Positions 33,048-47,420 of a DNA stretch of 47,420 nucleotides are shown here, in pieces (position 1 is the stretch's first letter; the number at the start of each line of letters is the position of its first letter). The DNA is from a virus. The translations under genes were made by a program, and so were the position numbers. Below the pieces are notes generated by a model, which was not told the DNA's origin, searched no databases, and saw only the letters and a program-made list of their open reading frames with translations. The stretch covers positions 1-47,420 of the IMG/VR virus record IMGVR_UViG_3300049728_000011, one strand, 5' to 3'.

Positions 33048-34307
33048 TTACACCGTAATGGCGTTGACAGTGATATTCAGCGCGGGGCAAACGGGTTGCT
33101 GGTCAATTCCCATTGTCACAGATGCCCCGCTTGTCGGGCTCGCAGAGAAGCCGATGAAAATCGATACCGGGGTGATATTGCCGATAGCTTGTATTGGGGC
33201 AGCGTACTCGGCTGCGATGATTTGCCCCCCAATGCGCGCACGTGACACGTTGATGGACCCATCTGCCGCAGAGTAGCCATTGATGAATGCAGATGCAACG
33301 GCCTGTTGCACCTGCGTAATGTAGTTGCTCGGCAATGTTGTCAAGTTAGCTACATTAACCGTGATGTATACCTGCGTGGCTGGAGGTACAACGTAGCGCA
33401 CAACATAAGTAGGGTAGGGCGCGACGTAATTGACTGTATCCTGAATGGTTACGCTAGTGGTGCCTTGTGACGACATACCGCAGCCCGCATCCAGCTTACT
33501 GTGAATCGCCGCGGCCACCGCAACAGTAGTGCCGCCAGACGCGGCTACCATGATCGAATTGGCCGGTATAGGGTAATTAGTCGTGCCGTAAGTAATTGCA
33601 GACGTGCTGCCATTGTTGTACACATACACGTCGCTGACGTTCGCCACTGCCGCAACAGCGGCGCGCACGGATTCTGCTGAACCAGTGCCCCCAATTTGCA
33701 CGCTCTCTTGTCGCCGCGTTTCGAACGCTGCCCGGCCTTCTACGTCTTGACCGGGTGTGCTGCTAACGCTGTTAGACACGCCTTCCCAGCCTGCCGAGCG
33801 CTGATAAATAGTCAGGTCGTTGATGCCTGCTACCGGCGCACTGCCCGAAGTAGTCGCTTGAAACGTCACCGTAGCGGTGCCTGCCGATCCAAACACGACA
33901 GATGTCGTAGAGGCCCATATTGTGCCGTCTGACGATTTAACTTGCGCGCCCGCTGCGAGCGGTTGACCGACAACGCCGGTTACAGTGGCAGGTACGGTGG
34001 CGTAAGTCGCTCCGTTGCGCTTAAGAAGATAGATACGGCCTAGCGCATCCTGAAATGCCCCCGATGTGGTCAACGGGTCCACGTTAGCAATTAATTGCGC
34101 TAACGCTGCCTGAAAGTCGGCCACCATGTACGATTGCGAAGAGGAAAGCTGGCCCTGTGGTGTAGCGAGTGCGGAAGACAACGTCTTACCCGTCGCAGCC
34201 CAAGCAGCGACATAGTCGGCCAGAATGCCTGTCAGGATAGCCTGTTCGCTATACGTGAGCAGTCCGGCGCTAGTGAAGGTCGGTAAAGGTACGTTTGTTG
34301 TAGCCAT
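33048..34307 (-). CDS. Baseplate J-like protein
   Basis: 419 aa. The N-terminal LPTFTSAGL...ILTGILADY pattern and its position upstream of the DUF2612 and fibre genes fit the baseplate J family. Confidence 0.78.
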   Translation of the reverse strand: MATTNVPLPTFTSAGLLTYSEQAILTGILADYVAAWAATGKTLSSALATPQGQLSSSQSYMVADFQAALAQLIANVDPLTTSGAFQDALGRIYLLKRNGATYATVPATVTGVVGQPLAAGAQVKSSDGTIWASTTSVVFGSAGTATVTFQATTSGSAPVAGINDLTIYQRSAGWEGVSNSVSSTPGQDVEGRAAFETRRQESVQIGGTGSAESVRAAVAAVANVSDVYVYNNGSTSAITYGTTNYPIPANSIMVAASGGTTVAVAAAIHSKLDAGCGMSSQGTTSVTIQDTVNYVAPYPTYVVRYVVPPATQVYITVNVANLTTLPSNYITQVQQAVASAFINGYSAADGSINVSRARIGGQIIAAEYAAPIQAIGNITPVSIFIGFSASPTSGASVTMGIDQQPVCPALNITVNAITV

Positions 34308-34346: not shown

Positions 34347-34487
34347 TCAATTGTCAGGGCAGACAGTCTGTTTCATGTCGTACAAGTCGATCTTGATTTG
34401 CACATACTTAGCGAAGCCATCCGCGATGCTGGGCTGACCGTAAAACAACAACATGCCCAGCAGCACGACAATAAGCGCTTTGTACAT
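34347..34487 (-). CDS. Possible 46-aa secreted peptide
   Basis: My own translation gives MYKALIVVLLGMLLFYGQPSIADGFAKYVQIKIDLYDMKQTVCPDN, which has a signal-peptide-like N-terminus. The start overlaps the upstream stop as TAATG. Confidence 0.4.
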   Translation of the reverse strand: MYKALIVVLLGMLLFYGQPSIADGFAKYVQIKIDLYDMKQTVCPDN

Positions 34488-34852
34488 TATTTAAGCTCCT
34501 TGTATCTGCCGGTAATCCCATGCGCTGCCTCGATAGCGCGGAATAGATCAGCGAAACTAGACCCTAGCGTTTGGTCCCACGTTGCGTAAATGCTTGCAAT
34601 CTGCGCCTCGCTCAACGGCTCCCGCTTCACGCTGGCAATGGCCTGCTCTGCGTAGGCGCGCATTTGATCTGCAGTAAAAACAAACTCTGGAACGCAATCA
34701 ACTGCTTGATCTATTGCCATTTGAAATGCGAACTCGGCGCAACCATATTTGTCTTCAATTCCACGGGAATAAATTTCGCTGACGAGGCCTGAATTTTCTA
34801 GCTGAGGCCAATTTATTTCTATTGCCTCTGGCAATTCCGGTAACTTGCTCAT
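34487..34852 (-). CDS. Hypothetical protein (accessory island)
   Basis: 121-aa ORF, ATGA-coupled to the upstream gene. Confidence 0.65.
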   Translation of the reverse strand: MSKLPELPEAIEINWPQLENSGLVSEIYSRGIEDKYGCAEFAFQMAIDQAVDCVPEFVFTADQMRAYAEQAIASVKREPLSEAQIASIYATWDQTLGSSFADLFRAIEAAHGITGRYKELK

Positions 34853-35649
34853 GCTGACTCCTTTGCTGCGATAGCTGCGTCAATTGCTTCGCGTGCGGTC
34901 TTGTGCTCGTCAATCTGTACCCATACGTCCCAGCCGCCGCTATCGTTCAGGCAAGGATATTCAAGCCAGTAAAGTGTTGGATACTCGGCTTCATCTGGGT
35001 CGTAATCGTTACGTACAGATGCTTGCTTCTCGATCAAGAAATTCAGACGCTCGCTGTCCTTCGCATCTGCGGATGGCGGGGCGTTGTTTTCGGTCATTTC
35101 TGCATACCAAACGTTGTTACCGAACTCGCCAGTCAATCGAGCGAAGATTCTATGGCCAGCATCATCGTCGCCTGTGCTGACATCGACGCTGATTTGCTGC
35201 CCCTCTGGAGGCGCTACCGGCTCCGCACTTACAGACGCTGGTGGGGCGGTGTAGAGCGGCACCGGGTCTGCATCATAAGCAAGTGCCTGAGCGAAGCGCT
35301 CTGTATAGGCAGGGTGTTTCAGTCCATCTTTCGGTTTGTAGCGCCACGCTACCGGCTCCGCACTCCCCATAGCTGCGCGCTCAATAAACAGCATCAATGC
35401 CTCGGCCAGCGCTCCGGCACCGAGAGAATGATTGCCATCTACGCGCCTGATTTCCTGCGCCAGCGCATCAGCGTCTAGCGTGATCGCTGGCGTAGCTGCG
35501 CGCTTGGCGAGCAGATAACCTTGAAACACGTTTTCAGTGTCACGGTTTTTGTATGCCCCATAGCCACTATACTGCTCAAAGTTTGCGTTTTTATTCTGGA
35601 CTAGCGCTTCGAACTCGCGGCGCTCTTGTTCAATGTTCAGTTCTTTCAC
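34849..35649 (-). CDS. Hypothetical modular protein (accessory island)
   Basis: 266-aa ORF with EFEAL, PVAW and PLYTAPP modules, as seen in ead/nin-region proteins of lambdoid phages (from memory). Confidence 0.7.
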   Translation of the reverse strand: MKELNIEQERREFEALVQNKNANFEQYSGYGAYKNRDTENVFQGYLLAKRAATPAITLDADALAQEIRRVDGNHSLGAGALAEALMLFIERAAMGSAEPVAWRYKPKDGLKHPAYTERFAQALAYDADPVPLYTAPPASVSAEPVAPPEGQQISVDVSTGDDDAGHRIFARLTGEFGNNVWYAEMTENNAPPSADAKDSERLNFLIEKQASVRNDYDPDEAEYPTLYWLEYPCLNDSGGWDVWVQIDEHKTAREAIDAAIAAKESA

Positions 35650-36038
35650 GATTTCACCTCTTGCGATTGGAGGACTGCATTTATGCTTGCGCCTAGCATG
35701 AATGAAAGCTCACGCTCTTTCTCGTTAATGCCTTCGATTGTCGAGAGGAACCCTGCGCATGACTTCAATATCCCGCGTAACAGCGCCGCATCAGCCTTTG
35801 CCTGCTCAAGCTCTGCCAGCAGCTTGAGGATTGCGGCGGGGTTGGTGGCTGCGATGAAATTAGCGTTCTTTCGATTGTCATCGCGATTACCGTTACCGCG
35901 TATCTGAATTTCGATGCCGAGCCTGTCGTCGGTTTCTGGCGCGTAGACACGCGGCGAGTTGGCATGGTTGCTTTTCCTCCACGGCCCCGGTGTCGCAGCC
36001 TCTGCCAGCCGCTTCAGTTCTTTCAGATCGTCGCTCAT
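35646..36038 (-). CDS. Ead/Ea22-like protein
   Basis: Contains TPGPW...NANFIAATNPAAILKLLAELE, typical of the Ead/Ea22-like family. ATG 36038 (MSDDLKELK) overlaps the upstream stop as ATGA. The track start at 36086 is an extension. Confidence 0.65.
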   Translation of the reverse strand: MSDDLKELKRLAEAATPGPWRKSNHANSPRVYAPETDDRLGIEIQIRGNGNRDDNRKNANFIAATNPAAILKLLAELEQAKADAALLRGILKSCAGFLSTIEGINEKERELSFMLGASINAVLQSQEVKS

Positions 36039-36871
36039 TGGGTGCCGCCTTCCTTGCGCATACGACGATAGAAATGCTCGCAGCAAAAGCGCTTACCTCT
36101 CTTAGTCGCGCTGTTTTGGCTTGTTGTCAGCCCGAGTTCCATCATTATTTGAGTCAACGTATGACCGCAGTGATACCCGGCAATTCGTTTTAGAACACCC
36201 TCCGCAAGAAGAGTGCGGTAGTCATTAGTGCCAAAACTTGTGTTTTCAAAGGCGGCTGAAATTTGCTCCGTGCTCAGTTCGTATTGATTTTGTTTAGCCA
36301 TTGGCGCAACTGATGAAACACGTATCATCTGTAATTTTCCATCAGTATGGTTGGCATATGCGTACCGTAGAGCATCGCCGATTGTCGGTGTACCCCATGA
36401 TTTCGTTTTTTCTGATTTGCCAGTTGCGGTGTAGTTGGCATCATCCTCGCTTTTGAAAATTACGCCTTCCTCGCCATTTGGCGACAGCACTGCAAAGAAC
36501 TCAGGTTGCACTGCTACAGCTTGCGCATCGGCAGGAGTTGTTCCGTTCATCCGCTTAAAGCCAGCGTCAAGCAATGTCTTTTGAATCTTTGCGATTTGCT
36601 CGGCAGTAAATCTATTACTCGGCGCGACTGCTTGCGCATCAGCCTTTGCCTGCTCAAGCTCTGCGGATGGTGCGCGACGGTTCCACTGCTCAACTAATAG
36701 TTCTCGTTTATACCTGCTAGCGAATGAGGCTGTGCAGCCCAAACAGTCGATTGAATAAACGGTGTCGCTATGATGCAAATATCCAATTCCTGCGCCGGGA
36801 TGCGCAGCGAGTTTTACGTCTTCGCTACCGCAAAACGGGCAGGGCTTCAGTTCCTTCAGATCGTCGCTCAT
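36035..36871 (-). CDS. Protein with an N-terminal Lar-like zinc ribbon
   Basis: KPCPFCGS...CLGC...EQWNRRAP matches the Lar restriction-alleviation pattern. 278 aa with an unrelated C-terminal part. Confidence 0.7.
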   Translation of the reverse strand: MSDDLKELKPCPFCGSEDVKLAAHPGAGIGYLHHSDTVYSIDCLGCTASFASRYKRELLVEQWNRRAPSAELEQAKADAQAVAPSNRFTAEQIAKIQKTLLDAGFKRMNGTTPADAQAVAVQPEFFAVLSPNGEEGVIFKSEDDANYTATGKSEKTKSWGTPTIGDALRYAYANHTDGKLQMIRVSSVAPMAKQNQYELSTEQISAAFENTSFGTNDYRTLLAEGVLKRIAGYHCGHTLTQIMMELGLTTSQNSATKRGKRFCCEHFYRRMRKEGGTQ

Positions 36872-37038
36872 TACAACTTACCTCCACGTGCAAGCCGCTT
36901 TAGGATGCTGTAACGCTGCGACATAAGATCGGAAACATCACTCTTCCCGTTCTCAGCAAGCTCTTCATTCAACTCTCCATTTAGAGTGTCTAACCAAAGG
37001 TCTAGCGCCATTTCATCTGGCATCAGCTCGTCGCTCAT
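36871..37038 (-). CDS. Possible 55-aa acidic protein
   Basis: My own translation gives MSDELMPDEMALDLWLDTLNGELNEELAENGKSDVSDLMSQRYSILKRLARGGKL. It has an ATGA overlap upstream and a TAATG overlap downstream. Confidence 0.45.
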   Translation of the reverse strand: MSDELMPDEMALDLWLDTLNGELNEELAENGKSDVSDLMSQRYSILKRLARGGKL

Positions 37039-38279
37039 TTGCGCACCTCGGCTTTCAGGGCGCGGATGGGATCCGCTACATTTTGGCCGTCTGAATAGCG
37101 GCTTCGTTCTGCGGCTCTAGCTCCAACAATTGCCGCCTCTTCCAGCGCCGCATTGCGGATTGCTGTACTGTCGGCTGGGCGGGTGTAGAGCGTGCGGCGC
37201 TGGTCAACTGGCGTGCGGTCGTATTCAACTTTATCAACGTCAAACCAAAAATCGCGACGGCTAAATGACCTCTGCTGATACACAGCTTGCGCATCGGCCT
37301 GCGCTGGCTCCTGCGGTGCGACTGCGATCTGCATTGTTGTCATGTCATCCAGTAATATTAACAGTTGTGGGCCGTCTACAAGAACTTCCCCGTTGTAGAT
37401 ACCAGCTTTGTAAGCTGCGTTGGCAATAGCTTGCATAAGCGCCTTTACCTGCGTAATTAACTCAGTAAGTGTTCGGTTTCTAGGCTCGACGTTTAAAACT
37501 ATGTCCAGCTCTTCAAGCCTTGACGAGTCGATGCAAACGTGTGGAGTGCCATGATGCGGACAGCCTTCGTCTTCGCATAATTCAGGTTCCCGCGTGTTTT
37601 GTGAAGCGGCGAGAATGGCTCGGGCGAAAATGTTAACCTCGTCGCCTACATCCTTTGCCTCGATTATGGATGCATTCCAGATTGCGCTAATCTGCTCATC
37701 CGTCAGCACCTGCGGCGTCAACTGCACTGCGGCGTAAACACCCTCCAAAGCGTTAGCCCATTCGAACATTTTGGACTTTGAAATCTCAACATGATCCGCC
37801 CACATCGGGTCTTCAGAGATGCCACGCAATTCGACGGCCACACGGTTGATAACGTCATCTGCGACAGGTCCGGCAATTGTTTTCTCTGACTCCTGCGTTT
37901 TCGTCTGGCTTTTCCGTTTGTTGCAATTATTGCAGCGACGTTCACTTACCTGATCCCCGAAGTAATGGAAATCGTGAGTGCATGTTTGCGCTGGCTCTCG
38001 TAATATGTCGGCATCTTTGAGCTCAGCCAAAGCCGCCGTTTGCTTTTGATGCCAATCATAGAAGTCTTGCATTGCATACAGTGCGTATGACTCCGCGCTA
38101 TCTTCGTCCGCGAAGTCCATACCGATGTAGTTGCGAATGATGTCCTTCATCTTCATTTCAGGCGGCATCGGAACCTTGCCAATCAGAACGCGCTCACCAT
38201 TTGGCTTCTCGCCAAGCGCGTCGATCATTTCGGGGAAATTTTCATCAGCCATGTCATACGTTTGTTCTTTGTTTGTCAT
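37035..38279 (-). CDS. Large modular hypothetical protein (accessory island)
   Basis: 414-aa ORF with Cys/His clusters CNNCNKRK and CEDEGCPHHGTPHVC, plus LTDEQI and LYTRP modules. Confidence 0.75.
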   Translation of the reverse strand: MTNKEQTYDMADENFPEMIDALGEKPNGERVLIGKVPMPPEMKMKDIIRNYIGMDFADEDSAESYALYAMQDFYDWHQKQTAALAELKDADILREPAQTCTHDFHYFGDQVSERRCNNCNKRKSQTKTQESEKTIAGPVADDVINRVAVELRGISEDPMWADHVEISKSKMFEWANALEGVYAAVQLTPQVLTDEQISAIWNASIIEAKDVGDEVNIFARAILAASQNTREPELCEDEGCPHHGTPHVCIDSSRLEELDIVLNVEPRNRTLTELITQVKALMQAIANAAYKAGIYNGEVLVDGPQLLILLDDMTTMQIAVAPQEPAQADAQAVYQQRSFSRRDFWFDVDKVEYDRTPVDQRRTLYTRPADSTAIRNAALEEAAIVGARAAERSRYSDGQNVADPIRALKAEVRK

Positions 38280-38302
38280 TATTTACTCCTGATGTTGGTC
38301 GA

Positions 38303-38632
38303 TCAAAACGGGCAATCGCCCTTTACTGGTGCAGCCACTTCGAACGGCATGTCGCTATCTTTCACGCCTTGCCGCTTCAACTGGTTGTACGGCCCTCGCG
38401 GGTTGTTGTCGCAGAACGGGTGCGTGGTGCGATGCGGATACGTGCCGTCTTTTCCCACTACGTTGCGGCAATAACACAAACCCCGTCGATTGTATTCCCG
38501 GCCTTCTAGTCGCCACCCCGATACTGTGTTGCACACTTCGCACGCTGGTGGCCTGACGTATTCGTCGGGGTGCCGTTTACTGACTCGGCGATGGCGACAT
38601 GCGCTATTTTTGCAGCGCACTGAGTAGGTCAT
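38303..38632 (-). CDS. Cys/His-rich zinc-binding protein candidate
   Basis: 109 aa with the motifs CKNSAC, CEVC, CYC and YPHRTTHPFC. It is ATGA-coupled to the upstream P-loop ORF. Confidence 0.7.
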   Translation of the reverse strand: MTYSVRCKNSACRHRRVSKRHPDEYVRPPACEVCNTVSGWRLEGREYNRRGLCYCRNVVGKDGTYPHRTTHPFCDNNPRGPYNQLKRQGVKDSDMPFEVAAPVKGDCPF

Positions 38633-38874
38633 GACTGCTGCCGCACACCCTTAATAGCAACCGCGTGATCGACTGCGTGAAGGGGATACTTTCGCAAGAC
38701 TTTGGGGTCATTCGTTAAATACAATATCCCCGCATCGGGTTCAAATTTGAAACCTGATGCGTGAAAGAGGTCATCATCACATACCTGCTCACAATCATAA
38801 GCAACCATTAGCGCCTCTGCGTTACGCGTCTTGCCGCAACCTTGCGGGCCGTACACTATTACGGATTTTTTCAT
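38629..38874 (-). CDS. Minimal (81-aa) P-loop NTPase-like protein
   Basis: Walker A GPQGCGKT at residues 9-16, and a possible Walker B VCDDD. It is the first ORF of the island, downstream of the structured leader. Confidence 0.7.
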   Translation of the reverse strand: MKKSVIVYGPQGCGKTRNAEALMVAYDCEQVCDDDLFHASGFKFEPDAGILYLTNDPKVLRKYPLHAVDHAVAIKGVRQQS

Positions 38875-39185
38875 TTGCGACTCCTGTTAGGTTTGGTGTT
38901 GGTGCAACTACAGGACGACATTCCTTTAGACCCCGTGCGGAAGAACTGCGATGAGTGCGCACGGGTTTGCGCAGTTTGCAACTTCATAGTTGCACCAACA
39001 TAGAAGCGGGCCGGGCTTGATTCCGGCTAGTGCGGGACAGCCTCTCGGGTCTAGGACCGTTCCCGCGACATGGCAGACGAGGCGCGCCTCTGCCATTCCC
39101 ACTTAGGTCTGCGTGTCCTTCCACGCCGCCGCTTCTATGTTGGCCCTGCGCTCTCTTACCCGGCGCAGGTTTAGGTGGTACTAAC
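38875..39185. ncRNA. Unclassified highly structured GC-rich non-coding segment (leader or ncRNA candidate; strand unresolved)
   Basis: The perfect complementary pairs are 38897-38910 with 38987-39000 (14 bp), 38995-39009 with 39129-39143 (15 bp) and 38932-38939 with 38958-38965 (8 bp), plus five local hairpins. No credible ORF is present. Confidence 0.4.
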
Positions 39186-39242
39186 GTGCTTGACAAAGAA
39201 TTTAAGCGTATCTTACGATAACTTAAATTCTTTGTCAAGCAC
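39186..39242. repeat. Perfect 21-bp inverted repeat with a 15-nt spacer
   Basis: GTGCTTGACAAAGAATTTAAG (39186-39206) pairs with CTTAAATTCTTTGTCAAGCAC (39222-39242). TTTT follows on the plus strand. Confidence 0.9.
39210..39238 (-). promoter_or_regulatory. Sigma70-type promoter TTGACA-17-TAAGAT embedded in the 21-bp inverted repeat
   Basis: On the minus strand the -35 is at 39233-39238 and the -10 at 39210-39215. It points into the structured leader and the accessory island. Confidence 0.5.
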
Positions 39243-39244
39243 TT

Positions 39245-40033
39245 TTAACCGGTCATGTTGCCGGTGTTACCCGAACCGGTTTGTACGCCGCCGTGGATAT
39301 GATTGTTCACGCTGCCATTTGGCACGATGACGTCTGGCGCAGTGATCGGGCTAGCAAACGTGAAGTTGCCCGAACCCGTCGCAGTGCCGCTTACTGACTT
39401 ACTAAACACGGTCGGGGCGTTGACAACTAACTGTGACGCGTTGACCGTTGTTGTACTTGCCGACGTGGTGGCGATTGTCGATCCGGCCTGCAACGTCAGT
39501 GAACCCCCCGCATTGAGCGCAATGTTGCCTGTCGCGTTCAGGTTGATATTGCCCGGCGAGACAATGTTAATACCTGCCGCGCTAGCAAGAAACTGAACGT
39601 ACTGTGTCGGTGCGCCGTTCAAGAAGCCGCCGAGGTACAGTCCGTCAGCGGTGCTGAATACGCGGTCGGTGGACGCCGGGCTAGGCTGCAACGTGCTCTT
39701 GATCGTGGTGATGTCTTTCTGCGCGTACAGTGCTACGCCGATGTCCCCGACCACTGGGTCTAAGATGATCGCAGATACGCCACCCTGCATGCGCATGTAG
39801 GGCACGTTGTATGCTGGGCTTTGATCGAGCACGATGCTGTTCGTGTCTACGTCCAGAACCATTGGCTGCACAGTGACAAACCCGACACGATCCGATACCG
39901 GATTGACTGCCTGCACATGTACCAGTTCTGCGGTGTTGATCGTGCCGCGCAGCAACGACAAGATGACGTATTCTTGTGAACGGTCCTCATCAAACTGCGA
40001 TTCGAACGAGAAACTAAATGGGGTGTTGCTCAC
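39245..40033 (-). CDS. Baseplate central spike / gpV (gp138 N-terminal-like) protein
   Basis: The N-terminal pattern LLRGTINTAELVHVQAV...PYMRMQGG...PVVGDIG resembles Mu gp45 / P2 V-type spike proteins. Confidence 0.72.
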   Translation of the reverse strand: MSNTPFSFSFESQFDEDRSQEYVILSLLRGTINTAELVHVQAVNPVSDRVGFVTVQPMVLDVDTNSIVLDQSPAYNVPYMRMQGGVSAIILDPVVGDIGVALYAQKDITTIKSTLQPSPASTDRVFSTADGLYLGGFLNGAPTQYVQFLASAAGINIVSPGNINLNATGNIALNAGGSLTLQAGSTIATTSASTTTVNASQLVVNAPTVFSKSVSGTATGSGNFTFASPITAPDVIVPNGSVNNHIHGGVQTGSGNTGNMTG

Positions 40034-40221
40034 GGTTCGCGCCCCTCTAACTCGGAAACACGGAAGCGAAGCGCAAGTACTTCGTCGGACAAGTCCAAGA
40101 CACAGCGCACAAGAAAATGCGCATTGATAGGCAACCCCGGCCCCCGTTGCCCGCCGTCCGCATCGGGACGCAGACTTTGTTCTATAGCTGACAAACGCTC
40201 ATAGGTTTCGTATTGGATCAT
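40030..40221 (-). CDS. Hypothetical small protein
   Basis: 63-aa ORF, coupled by overlaps on both sides. Confidence 0.5.
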   Translation of the reverse strand: MIQYETYERLSAIEQSLRPDADGGQRGPGLPINAHFLVRCVLDLSDEVLALRFRVSELEGREP

Positions 40222-40511
40222 TTTGCACTCTCCCGTTTAATGGTGACGCTAGACTTCTTTTCAGTAACGACACGGTAATCAACCCACTCGCCGTTTTCTT
40301 TCAGCATGCACGATACGCGGGGTGATATGAAAGCTTCGCGTCCGGTGAGTTTGCTTAGTTCGATACATGCGGGGCGCTCCATGAGAAAGTATATTCCTGC
40401 TCTGCAAACAAAAACGCCAAGTGCCACTAGTCCGATAAGCAGCGCGACTGCGCTCATTGCGATGAATCCGCAAACAAAAGCCTCTTTAATCTCGCGTGCG
40501 GTGTCATTCAT
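40218..40511 (-). CDS. Small membrane protein
   Basis: ATG 40511 (MNDTAREIK) is preceded by AACAGGAGAACAAAC. It has one hydrophobic segment. The track start at 40652 overlaps the upstream gene. Confidence 0.6.
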   Translation of the reverse strand: MNDTAREIKEAFVCGFIAMSAVALLIGLVALGVFVCRAGIYFLMERPACIELSKLTGREAFISPRVSCMLKENGEWVDYRVVTEKKSSVTIKRESAK

Positions 40512-40524
40512 GTTTGTTCTCCTG

Positions 40525-41421
40525 TTAGTTATTACTCTTTGCACCATAGCTGTTTGCCGCGATGGCCGTATTCCACTGCCCGCCGGGCAGATTGATGTCC
40601 AATTGATGCGACAACACGGCAGCGACCCAATTAGTGCGGTTGACAAAATCAAACGTCGTTTCTACATCAAGCGCTATGCCGGGGCGCAGTAAGGGGTTGA
40701 ATATTGTTGTAATACTTAACCCGCTCGTGCTGTACACCGGGGCATATTGCAAACCCGTATCAACCGCAATGCGTACCGCGTCTGTGTCACTCGGCGCACC
40801 CGCTAACCGGATTACGACCTGCTGCAAATTGACAAACCATGTCAGATCAGGGTATTGCGACATTAGCGCGTTGATTTGTTCCAACGGCGAGCCTGTTACG
40901 CGGGGGTTCGTCAGGGAATAGACCGGCACCGATGCCGAATACACCACAGCGAACCCTGCTTGACCGGCAATGTCTGCTAGTGCATCTGACAATGTGACTG
41001 GCCCCGGATTTGAATAAGGTGCTACAGGGGTATTCATCAACGGCATAGCGGCGTTGCTGTCAATGACCAGCTTCACCTGCGGCATCGTTGACGCGTCTAC
41101 TGCAGACCACATGATAACGCCCTGAAAGAACGGGATGTACTGCATTCCGTTCCACACATCGATTGCGACCGTATCAGCGTTCTGCGGCGTCATGACCTCT
41201 AGCCACAACCGCGCTATTTGATTCATGTCTTGTTGCGCTACGCCAAAGATTTCAATATGCGCATTGCCGTACTGCTTACCACCTTGCCGCACCTGAAGAC
41301 GCATGCGGTTTTGCGTGTAGACGTAGGTGTACGTTTGCGCCGCACCTTGCGCGTTGTTGCGCGTCACGGATACCGTGACGCGTGCCGCACGTTCAGCGAA
41401 TTGTTGAAATGTACCTGTCAT
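40525..41421 (-). CDS. Baseplate hub / tail protein candidate
   Basis: 298-aa ORF between the tape measure region and the spike. The function is inferred from position only. Confidence 0.6.
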   Translation of the reverse strand: MTGTFQQFAERAARVTVSVTRNNAQGAAQTYTYVYTQNRMRLQVRQGGKQYGNAHIEIFGVAQQDMNQIARLWLEVMTPQNADTVAIDVWNGMQYIPFFQGVIMWSAVDASTMPQVKLVIDSNAAMPLMNTPVAPYSNPGPVTLSDALADIAGQAGFAVVYSASVPVYSLTNPRVTGSPLEQINALMSQYPDLTWFVNLQQVVIRLAGAPSDTDAVRIAVDTGLQYAPVYSTSGLSITTIFNPLLRPGIALDVETTFDFVNRTNWVAAVLSHQLDINLPGGQWNTAIAANSYGAKSNN

Positions 41422-41423
41422 GA

Positions 41424-41513
41424 TCAGCCCAGTTTAACCGCTAGCCACGACAGGAGCAAATAGCCGAAAAGCGCTAATGTCAGGTCAGACATGCCTTGTA
41501 AGAACTTCTTCAT
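41424..41513 (-). CDS. Possible 29-aa hydrophobic peptide
   Basis: My own translation gives MKKFLQGMSDLTLALFGYLLLSWLAVKLG. It has a TAATG overlap with the upstream stop and ends 2 nt before the next ATG. Confidence 0.3.
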   Translation of the reverse strand: MKKFLQGMSDLTLALFGYLLLSWLAVKLG

Positions 41514-41794
41514 TATTCAACCCCCGGTTGATCGAGCATCCAATTGATCCAAGCAAGGCGGATCAGCCTACGCTGGCGCTTCGGTCCCGCCCAAAGCGCG
41601 AATGTGTTGCACTCCCAGATTGCGGCGTGCTCTTTAATTCGGAAAGCGGCGTCATGGTACTCAATATCGCTGTAAGGCACGGCCTGACGCTCAACAACTT
41701 GTGCAAGTACGAAAGAAACGGGGCGATCATCGCCGCTTTCGATCAGTTCTCTCGCAGCAACTAGCAACTCTCGCTCAACCTTATTCAGTGCCAT
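41513..41794 (-). CDS. Hypothetical protein, tandem paralogue 2
   Basis: Starts MALNKVERELLVAARELIESG and ends WINWMLDQP. It is a paralogue of 41800-42087. The track start at 41839 is an extension. Confidence 0.65.
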   Translation of the reverse strand: MALNKVERELLVAARELIESGDDRPVSFVLAQVVERQAVPYSDIEYHDAAFRIKEHAAIWECNTFALWAGPKRQRRLIRLAWINWMLDQPGVE

Positions 41795-41799
41795 GACAT

Positions 41800-42087
41800 T
41801 CACTCCATCTCTGGTTGATCGAGCATCCAATCTATCCAAGCCAGACGGTCTTGCTTGACACCACGTTGAGCATCATAACCATTTGCGCGCTGCCAGCTGT
41901 CGAGTGCTATATGCGGCGCTAGCGCTTTGCTAATATAGCGTTCGAGGCGCTTCGCTGCATCCATGTAGTAATATCTGCGACGACTGGTAGCGTTCTGTAT
42001 TGCGTGGCAAATGTAGAATTCTTCACCGCTTTCGATCAGTTCTCTCGCAGCAACTAGCAACTCCCGCTCAATCTTATTCAACGCCAT
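41800..42087 (-). CDS. Hypothetical protein, tandem paralogue 1
   Basis: Starts MALNKIERELLVAARELIESG and ends WIDWMLDQP. The track start at 42144 is an extension. Confidence 0.65.
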   Translation of the reverse strand: MALNKIERELLVAARELIESGEEFYICHAIQNATSRRRYYYMDAAKRLERYISKALAPHIALDSWQRANGYDAQRGVKQDRLAWIDWMLDQPEME

Positions 42088-42149
42088 AACGTTCTCCTGT
42101 TGTAAGTGTGTAGCTATCTTACGAAAACGTAACGGCAATGTCAAGCTAT

Positions 42150-43958
42150 TTAACGCACAGCGCTGTTGCGATTTTGTGGTCCGGTCAGGCGTTGTATCCC
42201 GTTGACGAATTCGCCGGGGTTGTTCGCCTGCACGGTCACGCTCTGGATGCTGATTGAAGTGCCTGCCGGGGCTGCGCCAGCCGAATCCGGGCCGTTGTAC
42301 CCGCTGGATAACTTGTCAGCTAGCTGTCCGCGACGGATCGATTCGGACAAGTTGCCGTGTACCTCGAACGTGTCGGAGAAAGACTTGCCGAGTTGTTGCG
42401 CGCCACCACCCACGCCTAGCGACTTGCGCAGTAACCCGGACTCGTAAGGGTTAGAGAACAGGAAATCAAGTTGCTGGTCGATTGTTCCGCCATCAGGACG
42501 AACTCCATACTTCGACAAGAAAGCGTCAGAGCGCGCACCACGCCATTGGAACAGACCGCGTGCGCCGCTGCCTCCGCCTTCGGCGTTGAAGTTACTCAAT
42601 TTCCCGCCCGATTCACTCATCGCATTAGCTGCGACTGCTGCGGCTTGCGGCACAGTCAGCCCGTATTTTGTGATCAGCTTGGTCATCAGGTCTTGCGAAC
42701 TGACCGTGCCGCCAGCGCCAGTTGTAGCTGTGCTGGGGGTGGCTGCGGGTTTGTTCAATCCGAACAGGTTAGCGATAGGCGCGGGGCCTTCGCTACGCGC
42801 TTTATCGACAAGCTTACGCCAAGAGTCGAGGAGCGACCCGAAGCCCTTTTCCACATTTTCGCCAATGCTGTTCAGCACCCCGCTAGGACCATTTGGGTTG
42901 ACGTTGACCTCGCCTTTAGTAAGTGCGTCAGTTGCTTTTTTTATAACGCCCACTACATTCGAAACAATGTACGCGAGTACGTCGAGCCATTCGCCCAATT
43001 GTGTCAGCGCCTTGATATAGATATCAGTCGCCGTGGGCAGTTCCTCGCGCATGACTTTGATGAAGCCGTCTAGACCCCCACCAGCAGCCATGATACGGTC
43101 AACAAATGCTGACACTTCCTTTGCACCTTTGCTTGTCCAATCCGCGAAGCCTTGTATTGCGGGCTGTAGTATCGTCGCTAGCGAATTTGCAACGTTAATC
43201 GCCGAATTTTCAACCGCCGACATCGCGTCAGCGACGGCGGCCATTGCTTTTTTGTTCTCTTCAGCAGCTTCAGCAAGTGACTTAGTGTATGCGGCGCGGG
43301 CATCCGTTTCCGACTTGATCATCAGAATCAAGTCCGGAGATACGCCCTGCGCAGATAGACCTGACTCGATCTGCCGCTGTTGCGCGGGACTCGAAGCGCG
43401 GTACATGTGCTGCGCTTGCTCTAAAATATCCGCAATAGGCGTATCCGCACCCGCACGAATGCCCATACGCGAAAACGCGGCGAGAGTCGGCGCATTGCCG
43501 GTGATGTTAAACTGTTGCTGTTCTCGCGCAAGGTCAGCTATGGCCTGCGCGCCGCTGGACGCGTCAGCGCCAAGACGCCGGGCTGTGCTGCCCCATGCCT
43601 GCATTTCTCGGTTAGACAAGTTAGTCGAAACTGCGGCGCGGCGCAGGTTCGTTTCCATGCCCGCCAAAGACACCACAGCGCCGACTAGCCCGGCTACTGA
43701 GCCGACGCCGAGCACACTCGCCAAGGACAACGACAAGCCTTTCAGCGCATTAGTTAGCGTTTTGGTTTCGCTAGTCGATTGCTTGGTGCGCTTGATCTGC
43801 TCTTTTTCGCGCTTGCTGCGCTTGTCATCTTCTTTGACGCGTTTCTTCTCAGTCTTTTCAACCTGTTGATCGACTTGCTTATCTGCTTTTTTGAACTCAG
43901 CATCGTCCAGCGTGAGCTTAACGACAAGTTCGTCCACCACGTTTCCGTTATCAGCCAT
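42150..43958 (-). CDS. Tape measure protein with a C-terminal lysozyme-like (tail lysozyme) domain
   Basis: About 600 aa, with a charged coiled N-terminus and a hydrophobic GLSLSLASVLGVGSVAGLVGAVV segment. The C-terminal MSESGG...GLFQWRG motif resembles phage tail lysozyme domains. ATG 43958 is preferred over the TTG at 43964. Confidence 0.85.
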   Translation of the reverse strand: MADNGNVVDELVVKLTLDDAEFKKADKQVDQQVEKTEKKRVKEDDKRSKREKEQIKRTKQSTSETKTLTNALKGLSLSLASVLGVGSVAGLVGAVVSLAGMETNLRRAAVSTNLSNREMQAWGSTARRLGADASSGAQAIADLAREQQQFNITGNAPTLAAFSRMGIRAGADTPIADILEQAQHMYRASSPAQQRQIESGLSAQGVSPDLILMIKSETDARAAYTKSLAEAAEENKKAMAAVADAMSAVENSAINVANSLATILQPAIQGFADWTSKGAKEVSAFVDRIMAAGGGLDGFIKVMREELPTATDIYIKALTQLGEWLDVLAYIVSNVVGVIKKATDALTKGEVNVNPNGPSGVLNSIGENVEKGFGSLLDSWRKLVDKARSEGPAPIANLFGLNKPAATPSTATTGAGGTVSSQDLMTKLITKYGLTVPQAAAVAANAMSESGGKLSNFNAEGGGSGARGLFQWRGARSDAFLSKYGVRPDGGTIDQQLDFLFSNPYESGLLRKSLGVGGGAQQLGKSFSDTFEVHGNLSESIRRGQLADKLSSGYNGPDSAGAAPAGTSISIQSVTVQANNPGEFVNGIQRLTGPQNRNSAVR

Positions 43959-43960
43959 GA

Positions 43961-44560
43961 TCAACTCGTAATGAAGGCAGCGGCGTTCACCAGCGCTTGC
44001 TGCGCGGCAGTCACTGCGGTAGTGAATACTTGACCAATCTGTGCGACTGGATTGCTTTTTGCTGACAGCGTGTTTTGATAACTGCCGTCGCTGGACGTAA
44101 TTTGTGGCACTTCAGTAAACAGGATATTCAAGTAGGTCAAGTTCGAACCACGATCCGGGCGCACGTCAATTGACATGCTAGCGATCGTAAAATCAACAAA
44201 AACGCCAACGGGCGATATCAATGTGTACAGTTGCGTAGGGTTCAACGCTTCCTGTTGACGGATCGCAGTGAACCACGCAAACCGGGCCACGTCTGATCCA
44301 GTTTTGATCATAGTGACGTTAATCGTTTGAGGGCGCTTGACTTTGTTGTAAGGCTGAAACGCGCCTTGCTCTTGCGGATAGTCTGAAAGTTGCGTTTCGT
44401 ATTTCGGGGAGAATTCCCCCCACGAGGACGGTATCGTCAGCGGTATAAACGTGTCACTTGCTACGATCGCATAGATCGGCGTAGGCGGGTTGACGTTTGG
44501 CAACGCTGACGCAACGAGCGCTAGCGCGTTTAACGCATTAACTGACGGTACGGTAGCCAT
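43961..44560 (-). CDS. Hypothetical tail-associated protein
   Basis: 199-aa ORF immediately upstream of the tape measure gene. Confidence 0.65.
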   Translation of the reverse strand: MATVPSVNALNALALVASALPNVNPPTPIYAIVASDTFIPLTIPSSWGEFSPKYETQLSDYPQEQGAFQPYNKVKRPQTINVTMIKTGSDVARFAWFTAIRQQEALNPTQLYTLISPVGVFVDFTIASMSIDVRPDRGSNLTYLNILFTEVPQITSSDGSYQNTLSAKSNPVAQIGQVFTTAVTAAQQALVNAAAFITS

Positions 44561-44561
44561 G

Positions 44562-44963
44562 CTAGGCGTAAATGTTCAACATTGCGAAAGCAGCTAACAA
44601 CTCGCCCAAGGTTGACAGCTCGCGGATATCGGTTCGCAACAATGGTCGAAATGCTTCTGGGTGCTTCGGATCGGGCGCAATCTGCACAGACTGCAATGCG
44701 TCAGTGACCAGCGTATGCACGGCTTGGGGCTGCGACCCTTGCAAGATATGCATAATGATATCAATTTGCGGCGCGCCCTTCGGGGCTGATTGCACCTTCG
44801 CCAGCAAGTCCTCGTAACTTTCGACGCGCAACGCAGAAACTAAGCGCACCACAAAGTCGGCCTTGGCTACTACGTCCAATTCTGTGATACGAAAAGCTTT
44901 TCCCGCATCACGGCCTTTAGTTCCGTACACCGTGGTGGTTTTGATTTCGTCTAGTGGGTTCAT
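44562..44963 (-). CDS. Candidate tail assembly chaperone (paralogue of 44960-45535)
   Basis: ATG 44963 overlaps the upstream stop as ATGA. It shares the GRDAG...ITEL motif with the upstream ORF. The function is inferred from position upstream of the tape measure gene. Confidence 0.55.
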   Translation of the reverse strand: MNPLDEIKTTTVYGTKGRDAGKAFRITELDVVAKADFVVRLVSALRVESYEDLLAKVQSAPKGAPQIDIIMHILQGSQPQAVHTLVTDALQSVQIAPDPKHPEAFRPLLRTDIRELSTLGELLAAFAMLNIYA

Positions 44964-45535
44964 GTCGCGCCTTTGGGTTTCGTGTTGGCTTTCCATTCTC
45001 GGATAGCTTCCACATTAGTTAATTCTACTAGGTTAAACGCGTCTTCGGTACTCAGAACGGTTTCCAATTCGACGTAAGAAGCATGCCCGGATTGTAGCAC
45101 CGCAGCCAAGAAGGGCGAACAAAACGTCACAGCGATGTCAGAAACTCCCGCTAGGATCGCTTCGGCGCGCATGGTAACGGGTGTTTCCAGTAACTCCCGT
45201 TCAAACAGAAAATCAACATGCAACAGTAGCGCGACTTGCTGCAATTTCGCCACGTTGCGCCAATCCCGCAAGTCGCGCCGGATATCAAACGCGCTTCCGT
45301 CTGTGTGCGTAGCGCGCACAAACCCGAACAGCAAGTGCAATCCTTCCTCACCAAGCGCGGCAAGCTCTTTTTGGTAACGAAGGGCTAACGACACAATCCC
45401 CCCGGTAGTATCGCCATCAAAACGCTGAATGATGCGCCGGGCTAATCGGTCGGCGGCCAAGGCGGGCAACTCGGTTAGCTGTACCGTTCTGCCTGCGTCC
45501 CGCCCTTCTAGCTCAAATGTTCGTGTCTTAATCAT
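44960..45535 (-). CDS. Candidate tail assembly chaperone
   Basis: 191-aa ORF with the motif GRDAGRTVQLTEL. The call is positional. Confidence 0.55.
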   Translation of the reverse strand: MIKTRTFELEGRDAGRTVQLTELPALAADRLARRIIQRFDGDTTGGIVSLALRYQKELAALGEEGLHLLFGFVRATHTDGSAFDIRRDLRDWRNVAKLQQVALLLHVDFLFERELLETPVTMRAEAILAGVSDIAVTFCSPFLAAVLQSGHASYVELETVLSTEDAFNLVELTNVEAIREWKANTKPKGAT

Positions 45536-45846
45536 TGCATAAAAATGTGTGCGATGTAGCCCAACACTAAGCCTAGCGCGGCTCTGACGACGACAGCGTA
45601 CATAACTTCAACGACGCTACGGCCTGCGTCAACTGCTACGTGCTGCGCAAACAAGAAGCGAAACCCAAGAGCTACGCACCCCGCAATCAAAGGATCGACG
45701 GAAACGGGGTAAAACGGCACCACAAACCATTTGAGATAAAGTGTCAATACCGTGCCGTAGGTAACTACGAAAAGGCCACACACCGCGCCTACGTCGAGCA
45801 ATTCACTAGCGATATACTTAATTCGTGTTTTTGTGGTCGTGTTCAT
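45532..45846 (-). CDS. Multi-pass membrane protein
   Basis: 104 aa with about three hydrophobic segments. It is preceded by the conserved AACAGGAGCTAAACAA ribosome-binding sequence. Confidence 0.65.
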   Translation of the reverse strand: MNTTTKTRIKYIASELLDVGAVCGLFVVTYGTVLTLYLKWFVVPFYPVSVDPLIAGCVALGFRFLFAQHVAVDAGRSVVEVMYAVVVRAALGLVLGYIAHIFMQ

Positions 45847-45850
45847 TTGT

Positions 45851-46024
45851 TTAGCTCCTGTTCAAGAAATCAACGTCTTCGATTTCACCGGGCGCTAATG
45901 CATTCATTGAATCACGTAGCCAACTAACGCGGTTGTAATACGTCTTGTCGCTATAGCCGTTAAGCTCGTCTGGGCCGGTATTTTTCATTTCTAGATATTC
46001 ATCCAGTAAATCAACGAATTTCAT
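45851..46024 (-). CDS. Hypothetical 57-aa protein
   Basis: My own translation gives MKFVDLLDEYLEMKNTGPDELNGYSDKTYYNRVSWLRDSMNALAPGEIEDVDFLNRS. It is preceded by the conserved AACAGGAGCTAAACAA sequence. Confidence 0.5.
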   Translation of the reverse strand: MKFVDLLDEYLEMKNTGPDELNGYSDKTYYNRVSWLRDSMNALAPGEIEDVDFLNRS

Positions 46025-46045
46025 TTGTTTAGCTCCTGTTGTGGT

Positions 46046-46258
46046 TTATGCGCAATAACGAGGAAAATCCAACACAAACGACTTGCAAATTTCTTGCGCT
46101 ACTTCGCTGTGGGCGCTGCTGGCATCTGCTGCGACCATTTCTACAAAGCGCCACAGTAAATCGTCTTCGCATCCGTGTGCCGCCTCAGGGTCACCGTTAC
46201 CGATTAGCGCTATCTTCGCCACTTCCATGTGCGCCTCTTCAATTGTAAGTTGTTCCAT
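46046..46258 (-). CDS. Hypothetical small acidic protein
   Basis: 70-aa ORF and the first gene after the TTGACT-17-TATAGT promoter. It is preceded by the conserved ribosome-binding sequence AACAGGAGCTAAATATG. Confidence 0.6.
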   Translation of the reverse strand: MEQLTIEEAHMEVAKIALIGNGDPEAAHGCEDDLLWRFVEMVAADASSAHSEVAQEICKSFVLDFPRYCA

Positions 46259-46287
46259 ATTTAGCTCCTGTTGTGTTGTATGTAGTA

Positions 46288-46316
46288 ACTATAAGTTAAA
46301 TAAAACGTAAAGTCAA
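46288..46316 (-). promoter_or_regulatory. Sigma70-type promoter TTGACT-17-TATAGT
   Basis: On the minus strand the -35 is at 46311-46316 and the -10 at 46288-46293. It lies directly after the terminator and before 46258. Confidence 0.55.
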
Positions 46317-46447: not shown

Positions 46448-46744
46448 TTAACTATCCCCATACAACAGCAAGTAGCGCGAACCGAACCCGGTATAAACGG
46501 GGTCCGTAATGCCTTGCAGGTCGGCAAACGCCAGTAGTTGCGGCAAGCCCAGATAACGGTTCGGGTTGATATCGGTGCGGTCGAGGCACAAACGCCCCAG
46601 CGCAACGGATACACCATCGTAAATCACATCAGCAAACAACCCGTAATCGGTCGTCGTCAGCGTAATCTGCGCCGCTGCGCCATCCAGAATCGCCGTGATG
46701 GTCTGGTTAGGTGTGGCAGATAACGGAATAACGACTTGTGTCAT
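46448..46744 (-). CDS. Baseplate/tail small protein candidate
   Basis: 98-aa ORF, ATGA-coupled to the upstream ORF and followed by an intrinsic terminator. Confidence 0.65.
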   Translation of the reverse strand: MTQVVIPLSATPNQTITAILDGAAAQITLTTTDYGLFADVIYDGVSVALGRLCLDRTDINPNRYLGLPQLLAFADLQGITDPVYTGFGSRYLLLYGDS

Positions 46745-47112
46745 AGCAGCACCTGCGAAGAATTGCCGCTGATGTCGGTGGTGGTAATTGCCCCGGAAAC
46801 CGTGCGGTTAGCAAATGTGAAATCGGCGGTAGCTTGCACTACGTCCGAAACTTTCAAGGCCTGTGTCGTGAACGAGTTTTGTACAAGTGTGAGGTTGGGT
46901 GCTTGCCCGAGAATATTGCTGTAGCGTATTCCTTGCGTCGTGTCGTAGTAAAGCTCTCCGTACCATGTCAGGCAGCGCGTAGCTACGTCCTGCGCCATGC
47001 GTATTGCCGGACCTGTCGAGTCGCCCGGCGTAGCGTCGCCCACCGTTGCCCAATTGCCGTATTGGTCAACGGTTAAATCCCATAGCGAATAATCAAGTGC
47101 AACAGTATCCAT
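46741..47112 (-). CDS. Baseplate wedge-like small protein candidate (start uncertain)
   Basis: This is the first gene leftward of hub copy A. The in-frame ATGs are at 47112 and 47142. The track start at 47277 lies inside the hub palindrome and is rejected. Confidence 0.6.
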   Translation of the reverse strand: MDTVALDYSLWDLTVDQYGNWATVGDATPGDSTGPAIRMAQDVATRCLTWYGELYYDTTQGIRYSNILGQAPNLTLVQNSFTTQALKVSDVVQATADFTFANRTVSGAITTTDISGNSSQVLL

Positions 47113-47168
47113 GCGCTGATTGTGCCAAAGAACGGCGCGCATGTCACGTGTGGCGCGATAACGTGTAG

Positions 47169-47420
47169 TTGCTGTAAAGAAAGGTACGGAGGGACGGAGT
47201 ACGGAGGAAGGTTTTTGAGACCCTGTACACTTTGCGAAAGTAGTAATAAGTACCCTACTTATTACTACTTTCTTCATCCAGTGCTTATATAGTAACTCTG
47301 TATTCTCCTTCTGTATTTATTATATATTATTAATATTTTATTTAACTACTATACTAAGAAACAGCTACAGAATGCGGGTTGTAGGCTTATTCAAAAGTAC
47401 GGAGGGAGATAGTTGTCAAA
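47169..47420. repeat. Hub repeat copy A, left part, plus the 127-nt window overlap
   Basis: Aligns with 24555-24806. Boxes lie at 47184-47194 and 47199-47209, and the palindrome stem is 47236-47252 pairing with 47256-47272. Confidence 0.85.

Follow-up and report, generated by a model that had tools for sequence, protein, structure and literature searches.

The window analysed here, that is, the whole 47,420-nt stretch of the virus record IMGVR_UViG_3300049728_000011, contains a block of nine open reading frames (ORFs) at 34347-38874 that separates two tail genes, those for the central spike (39245-40033; GpV Apex motif PF18946, 23.7 bits vs a cut-off of 20.8) and for Baseplate_J (hereafter, J; 33048-34307; PF04865, E=1.7e-15). 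We interpret this region as the occupied state of a hypervariable accessory slot between spike and J, in other words, as a moron-type island, and assign this reading a probability of about 0.72. Across the phages compared, the content of the slot ranges from nothing to about 4.9 kb of unrelated cargo, and the insert lies between genes that are adjacent in related phages, which is what characterizes a moron. The cargo is preceded by a predicted promoter and by a leader that we conclude, from its fold and covariation, to be a real, uncatalogued conserved cis-RNA. The island itself belongs to the well-known class of morons; the class of the leader RNA is possibly new. All features of the window described below are on the minus strand unless stated otherwise.

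By its sequence, the phage appears to be OP2/PQ43W-like, with a virulent-type backbone. The window looks like a complete genome of this type, of ~47 kb, with its own polymerase, primase and helicase, and it is collinear at the protein level with Ralstonia phage PQ43W and the Xanthomonas OP2 group, with J identity of 60-66%; no integrase is annotated in PQ43W. A nucleotide search of GenBank phages and complete E. coli genomes with the 7-kb region under study returned no match; a close cultured relative is lacking. IMG/VR contains 4-6 uncultured relatives with a 98% identical J (L005-L008, L046 and L053; L-numbers denote the loci compared with the window) and about 30 more distant ones.

In 36 loci, the size of the slot was taken as the interval between the spike match and the beginning of J, a measure that is approximate to within ~150 nt. 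So measured, the gap is 36-160 bp in about 12 of the 36 loci, including OP2, in which spike and J are 18-39 nt apart; it amounts to 0.3-0.6 kb in about 14 loci, 0.8 kb with a single hypothetical gene in PQ43W, 1.9-4.1 kb in nine loci, and ~4.9 kb in the window. Among the 83 proteins encoded in the slots, 41 are singletons. Among the recognizable cargo, a GIY-YIG/NUMOD3 homing endonuclease (L034) and an XRE-type helix-turn-helix protein (L006 and L008) were confirmed by Pfam; three readings by eye were not, namely an HNH domain (L009), a Lar-like ribbon (L011) and an outer-membrane-like protein with a signal peptide (PQ43W_12 of PQ43W). Of the island genes, only i109 and i46 are found throughout the ~70% clade: i109 occupies the first or second position of the slot in L005, L006, L008, L009 and L010 and has a remoter relative in L011, and i46 is the final slot gene preceding J in L005-L010. 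The initial annotation had described the region as same-strand ORFs, unrelated to virion assembly, that interrupt a normally close pair of genes. The coordinates bear out that nine such ORFs interrupt two genes that OP2 and about 12 relatives carry side by side; the accessory nature of the block is supported, and the block differs among phages with 98% identical J. The annotation had named the presence of the same genes at this position in all relatives as speaking against its proposal, and this distribution is not what the relatives show.

Comparison of the window DNA with the 98%-J relatives places the boundaries more precisely. The collinear stretches are 40032-39127 (spike and 5' leader), 39008-38896 (3' leader), 38632-38260 (i109) and 34668-33000 (3' half of i121, i46 and J), so that the upstream collinear edge consists of the promoter, the leader RNA and i109, and the downstream edge of the 3' half of i121 and i46. 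The stretch 38633-38895, with i81, is an additional insertion that none of these relatives shares with the window. The 3.6-kb core (38260-34668) is replaced in these relatives, with residual patches of 23-72 nt at 89-98% identity, and several of the high-identity patches fall exactly at gene junctions. The truly variable part is narrower than the block originally delimited as the island and corresponds to the interval 38260-34668; i109 and i46 are conserved anchors that frame the variable part and not swapped cargo. The C-terminal half of i121 is conserved and marks the downstream recombination boundary (~34668). Within the core, DNA repeats of 30 nt (100% identity) and 29 nt (97%) connect i278 and i146, encoding the ELEQAKADA and MSDDLKELK segments common to the two proteins, the latter at the N-terminus of i146. 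The base composition of the island is modestly offset, with 28% A on the coding strand vs 22-25% elsewhere and a GC content of 51.6% vs ~55%. From the collinear edges, the swapped core, the patches at junctions, the internal repeats and the chimeric structure of i414, we infer a shuffling of cassettes and modules, in which the cargo would be exchanged by recombination at short shared sequences, yielding chimeras such as i414.

The nine island ORFs are intact, and their tight translational coupling, noted initially, is borne out by four ATGA overlaps (i81/i109, i414/i55, i278/i146 and i266/i121), two TAATG overlaps (i55/i278 and i121/i46) and, in addition, one GTGA overlap (i146/i266); a Shine-Dalgarno-like sequence lies upstream at most of the junctions. 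The first gene, i81 (81 aa; 38629-38874; phrog_14685), had been called a P-loop protein. The protein, however, matches no more than the Walker-A segment, about 25 residues long, and all Pfam AAA matches are below the cut-offs. In all the 98%-J relatives, i81 is absent, and the leader runs directly into i109.

The upstream anchor of the slot, i109 (109 aa; 38303-38632), is a member of a family with 26 homologues and no Pfam domain, in which eight residues are invariant (C7, C12, C31, C34, C53, C55, H67 and C74) and are predicted to be arranged as two zinc sites. The protein is 96-99% identical in L005, L006 and L008 and ~57% identical in L009 and L010. Its model (pLDDT 77) contains only a generic zinc ribbon, and a fold search gave no significant neighbour. 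The N-terminus is very basic, and the conserved acidic tail (consensus DDIPxEY...(C/V/T)PF) ends in a manner similar to the C-terminal tip of SSB (DDDIPF). Homologues of i109 are found in early or replication regions of unrelated phages: in a temperate phage contig, between the genes for an ssDNA-binding protein and a DNA polymerase, and in a 100-kb phage contig, among small early genes. Because the tail ends like the SSB tip and a homologue adjoins the genes for an ssDNA-binding protein and a DNA polymerase, its sequence suggests that i109 might mimic the SSB tail to bind host SSB-partner proteins.

The largest island protein, i414 (414 aa; 37035-38279), is a chimera of at least four small modules (residues ~12-90, 90-200, 187-264 and 265-337). 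These four segments each match separate small stand-alone proteins, mostly of 70-130 aa, and no full-length homologue was found among 5.8 billion clustered proteins or 1.84 billion representatives. Module A (residues 12-90; 38010-38246) represents a widespread family of ~70 aa, the members of which are mostly stand-alone proteins of 75-130 aa; its AlphaFold model (pLDDT 95.7) consists of a beta-hairpin and two helices, and it has no Pfam family, no PHROG family and no structural neighbour in PDB or BFVD. The next ORF, i55 (55 aa; 36871-37038), is strongly acidic in its N-terminal 40 residues, belongs to no family and was not found in any relative.

Two proteins could be assigned to known families, and here the initial Lar and Ead/Ea22 calls pass all the respective thresholds (PF14354, TIGR03655 and PF13935). 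In i278 (278 aa; 36035-36871), the Lar-type zinc ribbon (residues 6-67, inside a phrog_599 match to residues 6-184) scores above both curated cut-offs (PF14354, 37.1 vs 28.6; NCBIfam TIGR03655, 48.4 vs 39.6) and is combined with a C-terminal phrog_18088 domain (residues 193-273), which Klebsiella phage ZCKP2 encodes as a separate 94-aa protein among a cluster of accessory genes. The adjacent i146 (35646-36038) matches Ead_Ea22 (PF13935, 33.3 vs 27) with residues 22-104 of the scanned 146-aa ORF; the match is partial, covering profile positions 9-87 of 139. The ORF was originally taken to begin with TTG at 36086, but the start most likely is the ATG at 36038, which gives a protein of 130 aa and creates the ATGA overlap. 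Further downstream, i266 (266 aa; 34849-35649) is a modular protein without a match in the phage collection, the N-terminal 53 residues of which, along with short DNA patches, are common to differing proteins in L005, L006 and L008. The N-terminal half of i121 (121 aa; 34487-34852) is unique. The downstream anchor, i46 (46 aa; 34347-34487), which lies 39 nt upstream of J, has a hydrophobic N-terminus, read as a signal peptide by eye only, and invariant PSIA and VCPD motifs; it is 96% identical in the 98%-J relatives and 53-57% identical in L009 and L010.

No island protein matches a virion or baseplate family (structural PHROG, Pfam), and the core genes are absent or replaced in the 98%-J relatives, in agreement with the view that the island is unrelated to virion assembly. 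Matches to defence systems (PADLOC) within the island are at the noise level (E >= 0.002, 12-15 bits), and searches of PDB sequences with i414, i278, i266, i146, i81, i121 and the i109 family gave nothing significant. Given the Lar-like ribbon, the Ead/Ea22-like protein and the zinc protein that is encoded beside replication genes elsewhere, the cargo appears to be of the early-region accessory type. No mechanism can be given for it except what the name of the Lar family implies, and restriction alleviation is the sole specific activity hinted at by any family name.

The predicted island promoter, TTGACA-N17-TAAGAT (39210-39238), matches the consensus at 10 of 12 positions and begins 4 nt past the spike stop codon. 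Both boxes (-35 and -10) and the 17 nt between them have been retained in L005, L006, L008, L009 and L010, although the spacer sequences have diverged. The claim that the island has its own promoter at the upstream edge is thus upheld in silico, in the form of a near-consensus sigma-70 promoter conserved in six sequences. Most of the occupied slots have a comparable promoter: it comes immediately after the spike stop codon in L001, PQ43W, L018 and L023 and, as a TTTACA variant, in L016 and L017, and it is missing from L011, L020 and L029, in which no space is left between the spike and the following ORF. Taken as a class, promoter-like matches show no enrichment across the region (8 found vs 6.9 expected), and accordingly the evidence for the island promoter is its conservation and not the scan. 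Strict matches to TTGAC[AT]-N16-18-TAnnnT on the minus strand occur only at 46316, 42144, 39238, 22017, 19286 and 17020. The last three are in the replication module, the first three in the tail operon, each preceding small non-conserved ORFs, and none is within the head gene module; the sites 42144-42116 and 39238-39210 have a common core, GCTTGACA...TCGTAAGATA.

The island promoter is enclosed by a perfect 21-bp palindrome (39186-39242; arms 39242-39222 and 39206-39186), the right arm of which is absent in the 98%-J relatives, so that this feature is specific to the window phage; possible explanations are an operator and an inverted duplication of recent origin. The palindrome also yields a mirror-image site, TTGACA-N18-TACGAT, on the plus strand, pointing back into the spike gene.

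At the other end of the island, the 39-nt i46-J junction contains neither a terminator nor a properly spaced promoter, and no strong terminators are predicted inside the island of the window. With no terminator before J, transcripts of the island should extend into this gene, and the polymerase that transcribes the late tail genes has to pass through the island. The initial proposal of expression independent of the tail genes can therefore be retained for the 5' end but not for the downstream end: the island does not appear to be insulated from the tail genes, and its independence would be partial.

The 373-nt leader region, which begins at the spike stop and includes the start codon of i81, has a predicted folding energy of -164.6 kcal/mol (z = -8.5 vs shuffles). 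This result confirms the long structured leader that had been noted at the upstream edge; more exactly, however, the leader is a discrete covarying motif that is common to unrelated elements. In the window, a conserved ACCUAA is followed by hairpin P1 (39145-39169; CCUGCGC-CGGGUAAGAGA-GCGCAGG) and, immediately after it, by the 16-bp helix P2 (38994-39144; 39144-39129 paired with 39009-38994), which closes a cloverleaf-like apical domain of 119 nt (39128-39010). The 3' part of the leader (38897-39000) includes hairpin P3 (38993-38978) and a 15-nt segment (38911-38897) that ends ~12 nt before the i81 Shine-Dalgarno sequence and is complementary to the P2 3' strand plus the P3 5' strand (39000-38986).

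Pattern scans of IMG/VR and metagenomes recovered the motif in at least 19 distinct sequences, most of which are high-GC prophage-like elements unrelated to the window phage. The consensus consists of a conserved ACCUAACC followed by P1, CCUGCGC-CGGGUAAG(N1-3)-GCGCAGG, with a GGGUAAG loop; P1 is invariant in 19 distinct sequences except for one compensatory change of a U-A to a C-G pair. Covariation was counted on a core alignment of the 19 sequences from which the apical inserts had been excised and in which the 3' strands of P2 had been located by complementarity itself. For P1 and P2 together, 95.5% of the cells pair, vs 31-46% when the partners are slid; 11 of the 20 pairs change on both sides, with 54 compensatory cells, and the observed covariation score was reached by 0 of 500 shuffles. 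For P2, 93% of the cells pair and 10 of 13 pairs change on both sides. The 10 G-U and 7 U-G pairs in the two helices fit the sense strand only. Even so, all members have a helix of 12-20 bp that starts directly behind P1, which greatly exceeds what chance would produce.

The apical domain varies in size from 12 nt in L082 to 125 nt. In three prophage-like elements, the domain inside P2 (L050, 7167-7287; L051, 2354-2472; L134, 5290-5408) matches the Rfam tRNA model with 41-50 bits vs a threshold of 29, with intact acceptor, D and T arms, a ~50-nt insert and no 7-nt anticodon loop; ARAGORN detected no tRNA in the ten loci scanned, L050 and L051 among them. The window apical domain folds in the same cloverleaf-like layout, and the window yielded no tRNA (RF00005) match at E <= 10 and no ARAGORN tRNA or tmRNA. 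Searches against Rfam 15, with the whole window at the gathering threshold and with the leader and compact members under permissive settings, returned only noise, and a literature search for a described RNA of this kind yielded nothing relevant other than the YrlA and put RNAs compared below. An integron attC-like reading of P2 was dropped on inspection of the sequence, which does not conform to the R'/R'' consensus. In the unrelated elements, the motif precedes early operons that encode Erf-type annealing proteins, SSB, RdgC and ParB-like proteins. L082 contains a minimal motif of ~67 nt, directly followed by an intrinsic terminator and then a gene.

Several motif-bearing elements have additional features of interest. 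Downstream of the motif in L144, at a distance of ~100 nt, there is a genuine tRNA gene, and L120 has a sub-threshold tmRNA-like match near the motif. L085 (~13440-13620) may carry two tandem copies, the second of which scores 32 bits with the model; the P1 of this second copy is closely preceded by a P2-like 3' strand (CCTTTGTGTTGGTG) and a hairpin with a GGGUAA loop.

The broadest functional interpretation of the leader, which we put forward tentatively, is that P1 and P2 with the tRNA-shaped cap constitute a new portable phage cis-RNA, either an RNA-only antiterminator or a tRNA-mimicking leader that recruits or decoys a host factor. If so, any cassette behind the leader would be expressed early by the host polymerase, even within a late operon, and this would explain why the same RNA heads a baseplate island and the early operons of unrelated temperate elements. 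Two more specific mechanisms, antitermination and attenuation or translational switching, seem about equally likely, and a released tRNA-mimic would be a less likely third. The put RNAs of phage HK022 are ~70 nt long, form two stem-loops, are located just downstream of PL, and act without proteins over 10 kb (PMC9378689). A put-like leader, a possibility of the same tentative standing as the portable RNA, would bind the elongating host polymerase and render it resistant to terminators and pauses, so that transcription from the cassette promoter would cross any swapped cargo and reach J and the fibre genes. The motif resembles put in size, in its two adjacent stem-loops at the 5' end of the transcript (~67 nt in L082) and in its promoter-proximal location, which in both the window and L010 is 12-35 nt past the predicted start; furthermore, it heads long early operons in unrelated elements and in L082 directly precedes an intrinsic terminator and a gene. 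However, a covariance model of the motif (R1) found no match at E <= 1 in the HK022 genome in a one-directional test with a narrow model, so that homology is not shown; the upstream ORF in L082 ends ~10 nt before P1, leaving no room for a promoter; the island of the window has no strong predicted terminators; and the large tRNA-like cap has no counterpart in put. Switching, in which P2 competes with an alternative helix near the first ribosome-binding site or, in L082, with the terminator, so that cargo expression is gated by a factor binding P1 or the cap, is conceivable to a marginally lesser degree. It draws on the alternative helix formed by the 15-nt segment, which is 15-16 bp long in the window, L005 and L006 and was reached by 0-3 of 200 shuffles, on a 12-bp counterpart in L070 (0 of 200), on copies of the P2 5'-strand motif (CCAnCA) before the first start codon in several members, and on the order of P2, motif copy and terminator in L082. 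The alternative helix is nevertheless not significant in most other members, being limited to the window clade and L070, and both the minimum free energy and the centroid folds favour P2 plus P3.

Under the preferred interpretation of the region as an occupied accessory slot, the host sigma-70 polymerase would initiate at the promoter past the spike stop and produce a transcript with the structured leader (P1, long P2 and the cloverleaf-like cap), then the nine coupled genes, and onward into J. The leader would probably act as a portable cis-element that controls elongation, termination or translation of the downstream genes. The cargo would probably be made early, prior to and independently of late activation, given that the same type of promoter is found in the replication module and in two other small tail cassettes and not among the head genes; most plausibly, the cargo would be non-essential and act on host or competitor functions rather than on virion assembly. 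Several points weigh against this interpretation. The promoter and the timing are deduced from sequence and conservation, and the classical definition of a moron includes a terminator, which this island does not have. The host-takeover or anti-defence role proposed initially has a single link to the cargo, the family name of one Lar domain of ~60 residues in a heterogeneous family, and the NCBIfam equivalog nearest to this domain is named for the RalR DNase toxin, with i278 scoring 16.9 against a cut-off of 113. Most of the cargo is without detectable function, which makes host takeover a default reading, and the retention of i109 and i46 across the clade implies that the phage may have functionally incorporated some of the island.

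That same retention of i46 and i109 beside J and spike, together with the location of the coupled, same-strand genes inside the baseplate module, could be taken to indicate that the island proteins are clade-specific accessory components of the baseplate or of tail assembly. This is highly improbable and, for the core, already largely refuted: the core genes are absent or replaced where J, spike and hub are 98% identical, OP2 assembles without any gene in the slot, homologues of i109 lie beside replication genes in unrelated phages, and none of the proteins matches a structural family. Somewhat less remote is the view that the cargo is a superinfection-exclusion or defence load that benefits the infected or lysogenic cell, as in the P2/P4-type hotspots, rather than counter-defence. 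The variability of a hotspot with promoter-led cargo would fit, as would the by-eye signal-peptide protein in the same slot of PQ43W, which Pfam did not confirm, and the small membrane-type peptides, i46 and a 29-aa peptide of the neighbouring cassette. Still, we consider it unlikely: no PADLOC family rises above noise, the backbone is of the virulent type with no integrase annotated in PQ43W, and the recognizable domains, Lar and Ead/Ea22, are those of phage early regions. The homing endonuclease in the L034 slot and the HNH-like first ORF in L009, again a reading by eye that Pfam did not confirm, raise the further prospect that the slot is a landing site for endonuclease-driven selfish cassettes, with the window cargo hitch-hiking or decaying and without function for the phage. 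This is more doubtful than a defence load, because the window and its close relatives lack any endonuclease domain, and the nine ORFs are intact, tightly coupled and equipped with ribosome-binding sites.

The remainder of the tail module comprises, upstream of the spike, the tape measure (42150-43964), two small paralogues (41513-42144), the baseplate hub (40525-41421; PF22759) and a small membrane protein with a 63-aa ORF (40030-40511); downstream of J follow a DUF2612 protein, a tail fibre and its assembly protein. Whether one of the island ORFs could be the missing gp25/W-type wedge gene was considered and rejected, since this gene is located at 46741-47277, upstream of the tube genes, as it is in OP2 and PQ43W. 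A W-like 121-aa gene between spike and J was seen, by eye, in the distant L037-L040 loci only. In the hub-spike interval, the membrane protein (~97 aa; phrog_29445; likely start 40511) is kept in close relatives, the 63-aa ORF is unique to the window phage, and a listed 144-aa ORF overlapping the hub is probably an over-extension.

A second promoter-led cassette (41424-42144) lies between the tape measure and the hub, with GCTTGACA-N14-TCGTAAGATA at 42144-42116. It encodes two paralogous proteins of ~95 aa (phrog_8421; likely starts 42090 and 41794) and, joined by a TAATG overlap, a 29-aa hydrophobic peptide (41513-41424) that ends 2 nt before the hub start. This layout, with promoter, cargo, tiny membrane peptide and next baseplate gene, mirrors that of the main island; the corresponding slot is empty in OP2 and occupied by up to 2.4 kb in other relatives. 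In a third variable slot of the tail operon (45532-46316), between a virion protein gene and the gene 44960-45535, the sigma-70-type promoter TTGACT-N17-TATAGT (46316-46288) precedes ORFs of 57 and 104 aa that are absent from PQ43W. Finally, L012, L013, L017, L019 and L027 have ~1.2 kb of extra DNA between the DUF2612 and fibre genes, which are adjacent in the window; this could be a further variable slot or a second fibre component.

The island is a well-bounded example of exchangeable, promoter-led cargo inside the tail operons of the OP2/PQ43W group, and a slot with conserved anchors on both sides is a site for mining accessory, possibly counter-defence, genes from metagenomes. Its cargo offers two well-defined uncharacterised families, the i109 zinc protein with its SSB-tip-like tail and the module A domain. 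The leader RNA, strongly covarying and fairly widespread at the starts of phage operons, is the more interesting product: if it alters elongation or mimics tRNA, it would represent a new class of phage regulatory RNA and a compact part for synthetic operons.

Among the known systems, the closest parallel to the island are the tail-operon morons of lambdoid phages (gp20, gp22, srb and cor of HK97 and HK022, and lom and bor of lambda), which in the HK022 record are annotated within the tail operon. Like the island, these are extra genes, unrelated to virion assembly, between late genes that are contiguous in relatives, with their own sigma-70 promoter, which in the island is a predicted one; their base composition is somewhat different, and that of the island shows the modest offset given above. 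Unlike them, the island consists of nine coupled ORFs instead of one gene, is devoid of a terminator of its own, resides in a virulent-type instead of a prophage backbone, and has a conserved structured RNA in front. The variable or defence hotspots of P2/P4-like elements and the plasticity regions of T4-like phages are fixed slots with conserved flanks, the cargo of which varies between close relatives. The island shares with them the fixed, framed slot and the homing endonuclease cargo in some relatives and differs from them in that no known defence system was detected in it and its cargo resembles the lambdoid early 'ea/nin'-type genes. Lar, the restriction alleviation protein of the Rac prophage, is a stand-alone protein of ~60 aa, whereas in i278, the N-terminal 60 residues match the Lar models, and the ribbon is the N-terminus of a 278-aa fusion. 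Similarly, i146 matches the family of lambda Ea22 and P22 Ead but is encoded in the baseplate module and not in the early left operon, where the HK022 copy lies between xis and abc2.

Two known RNAs invite comparison with the leader. Like the Y RNAs (YrlA and Yrn1), the motif has a long helix, built from segments far apart on the 5' and 3' sides, around a domain in which tRNA-like D and T arms are present but an anticodon is missing. In YrlA, which is encoded beside Ro60/Rsr, a circular permutation gives the order T arm, acceptor-like stem, D arm (PMC4201824), whereas the motif has the normal tRNA order with an extended acceptor stem, is part of an mRNA leader, and in the unrelated elements is flanked by genes of the Erf, SSB and RdgC types; identity with YrlA was rejected on topology, the gene context differs as well, and there is no Rfam Y-RNA match. 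With the HK022 put RNAs, the leader shares the two adjacent stem-loops of ~70 nt, the proximity to a sigma-70 promoter and the position at the head of long operons, and it is distinguished from them by the conserved ACCUAACC and GGGUAAG loop and by a second helix that carries a variable insert of 12-125 nt, sometimes tRNA-like.

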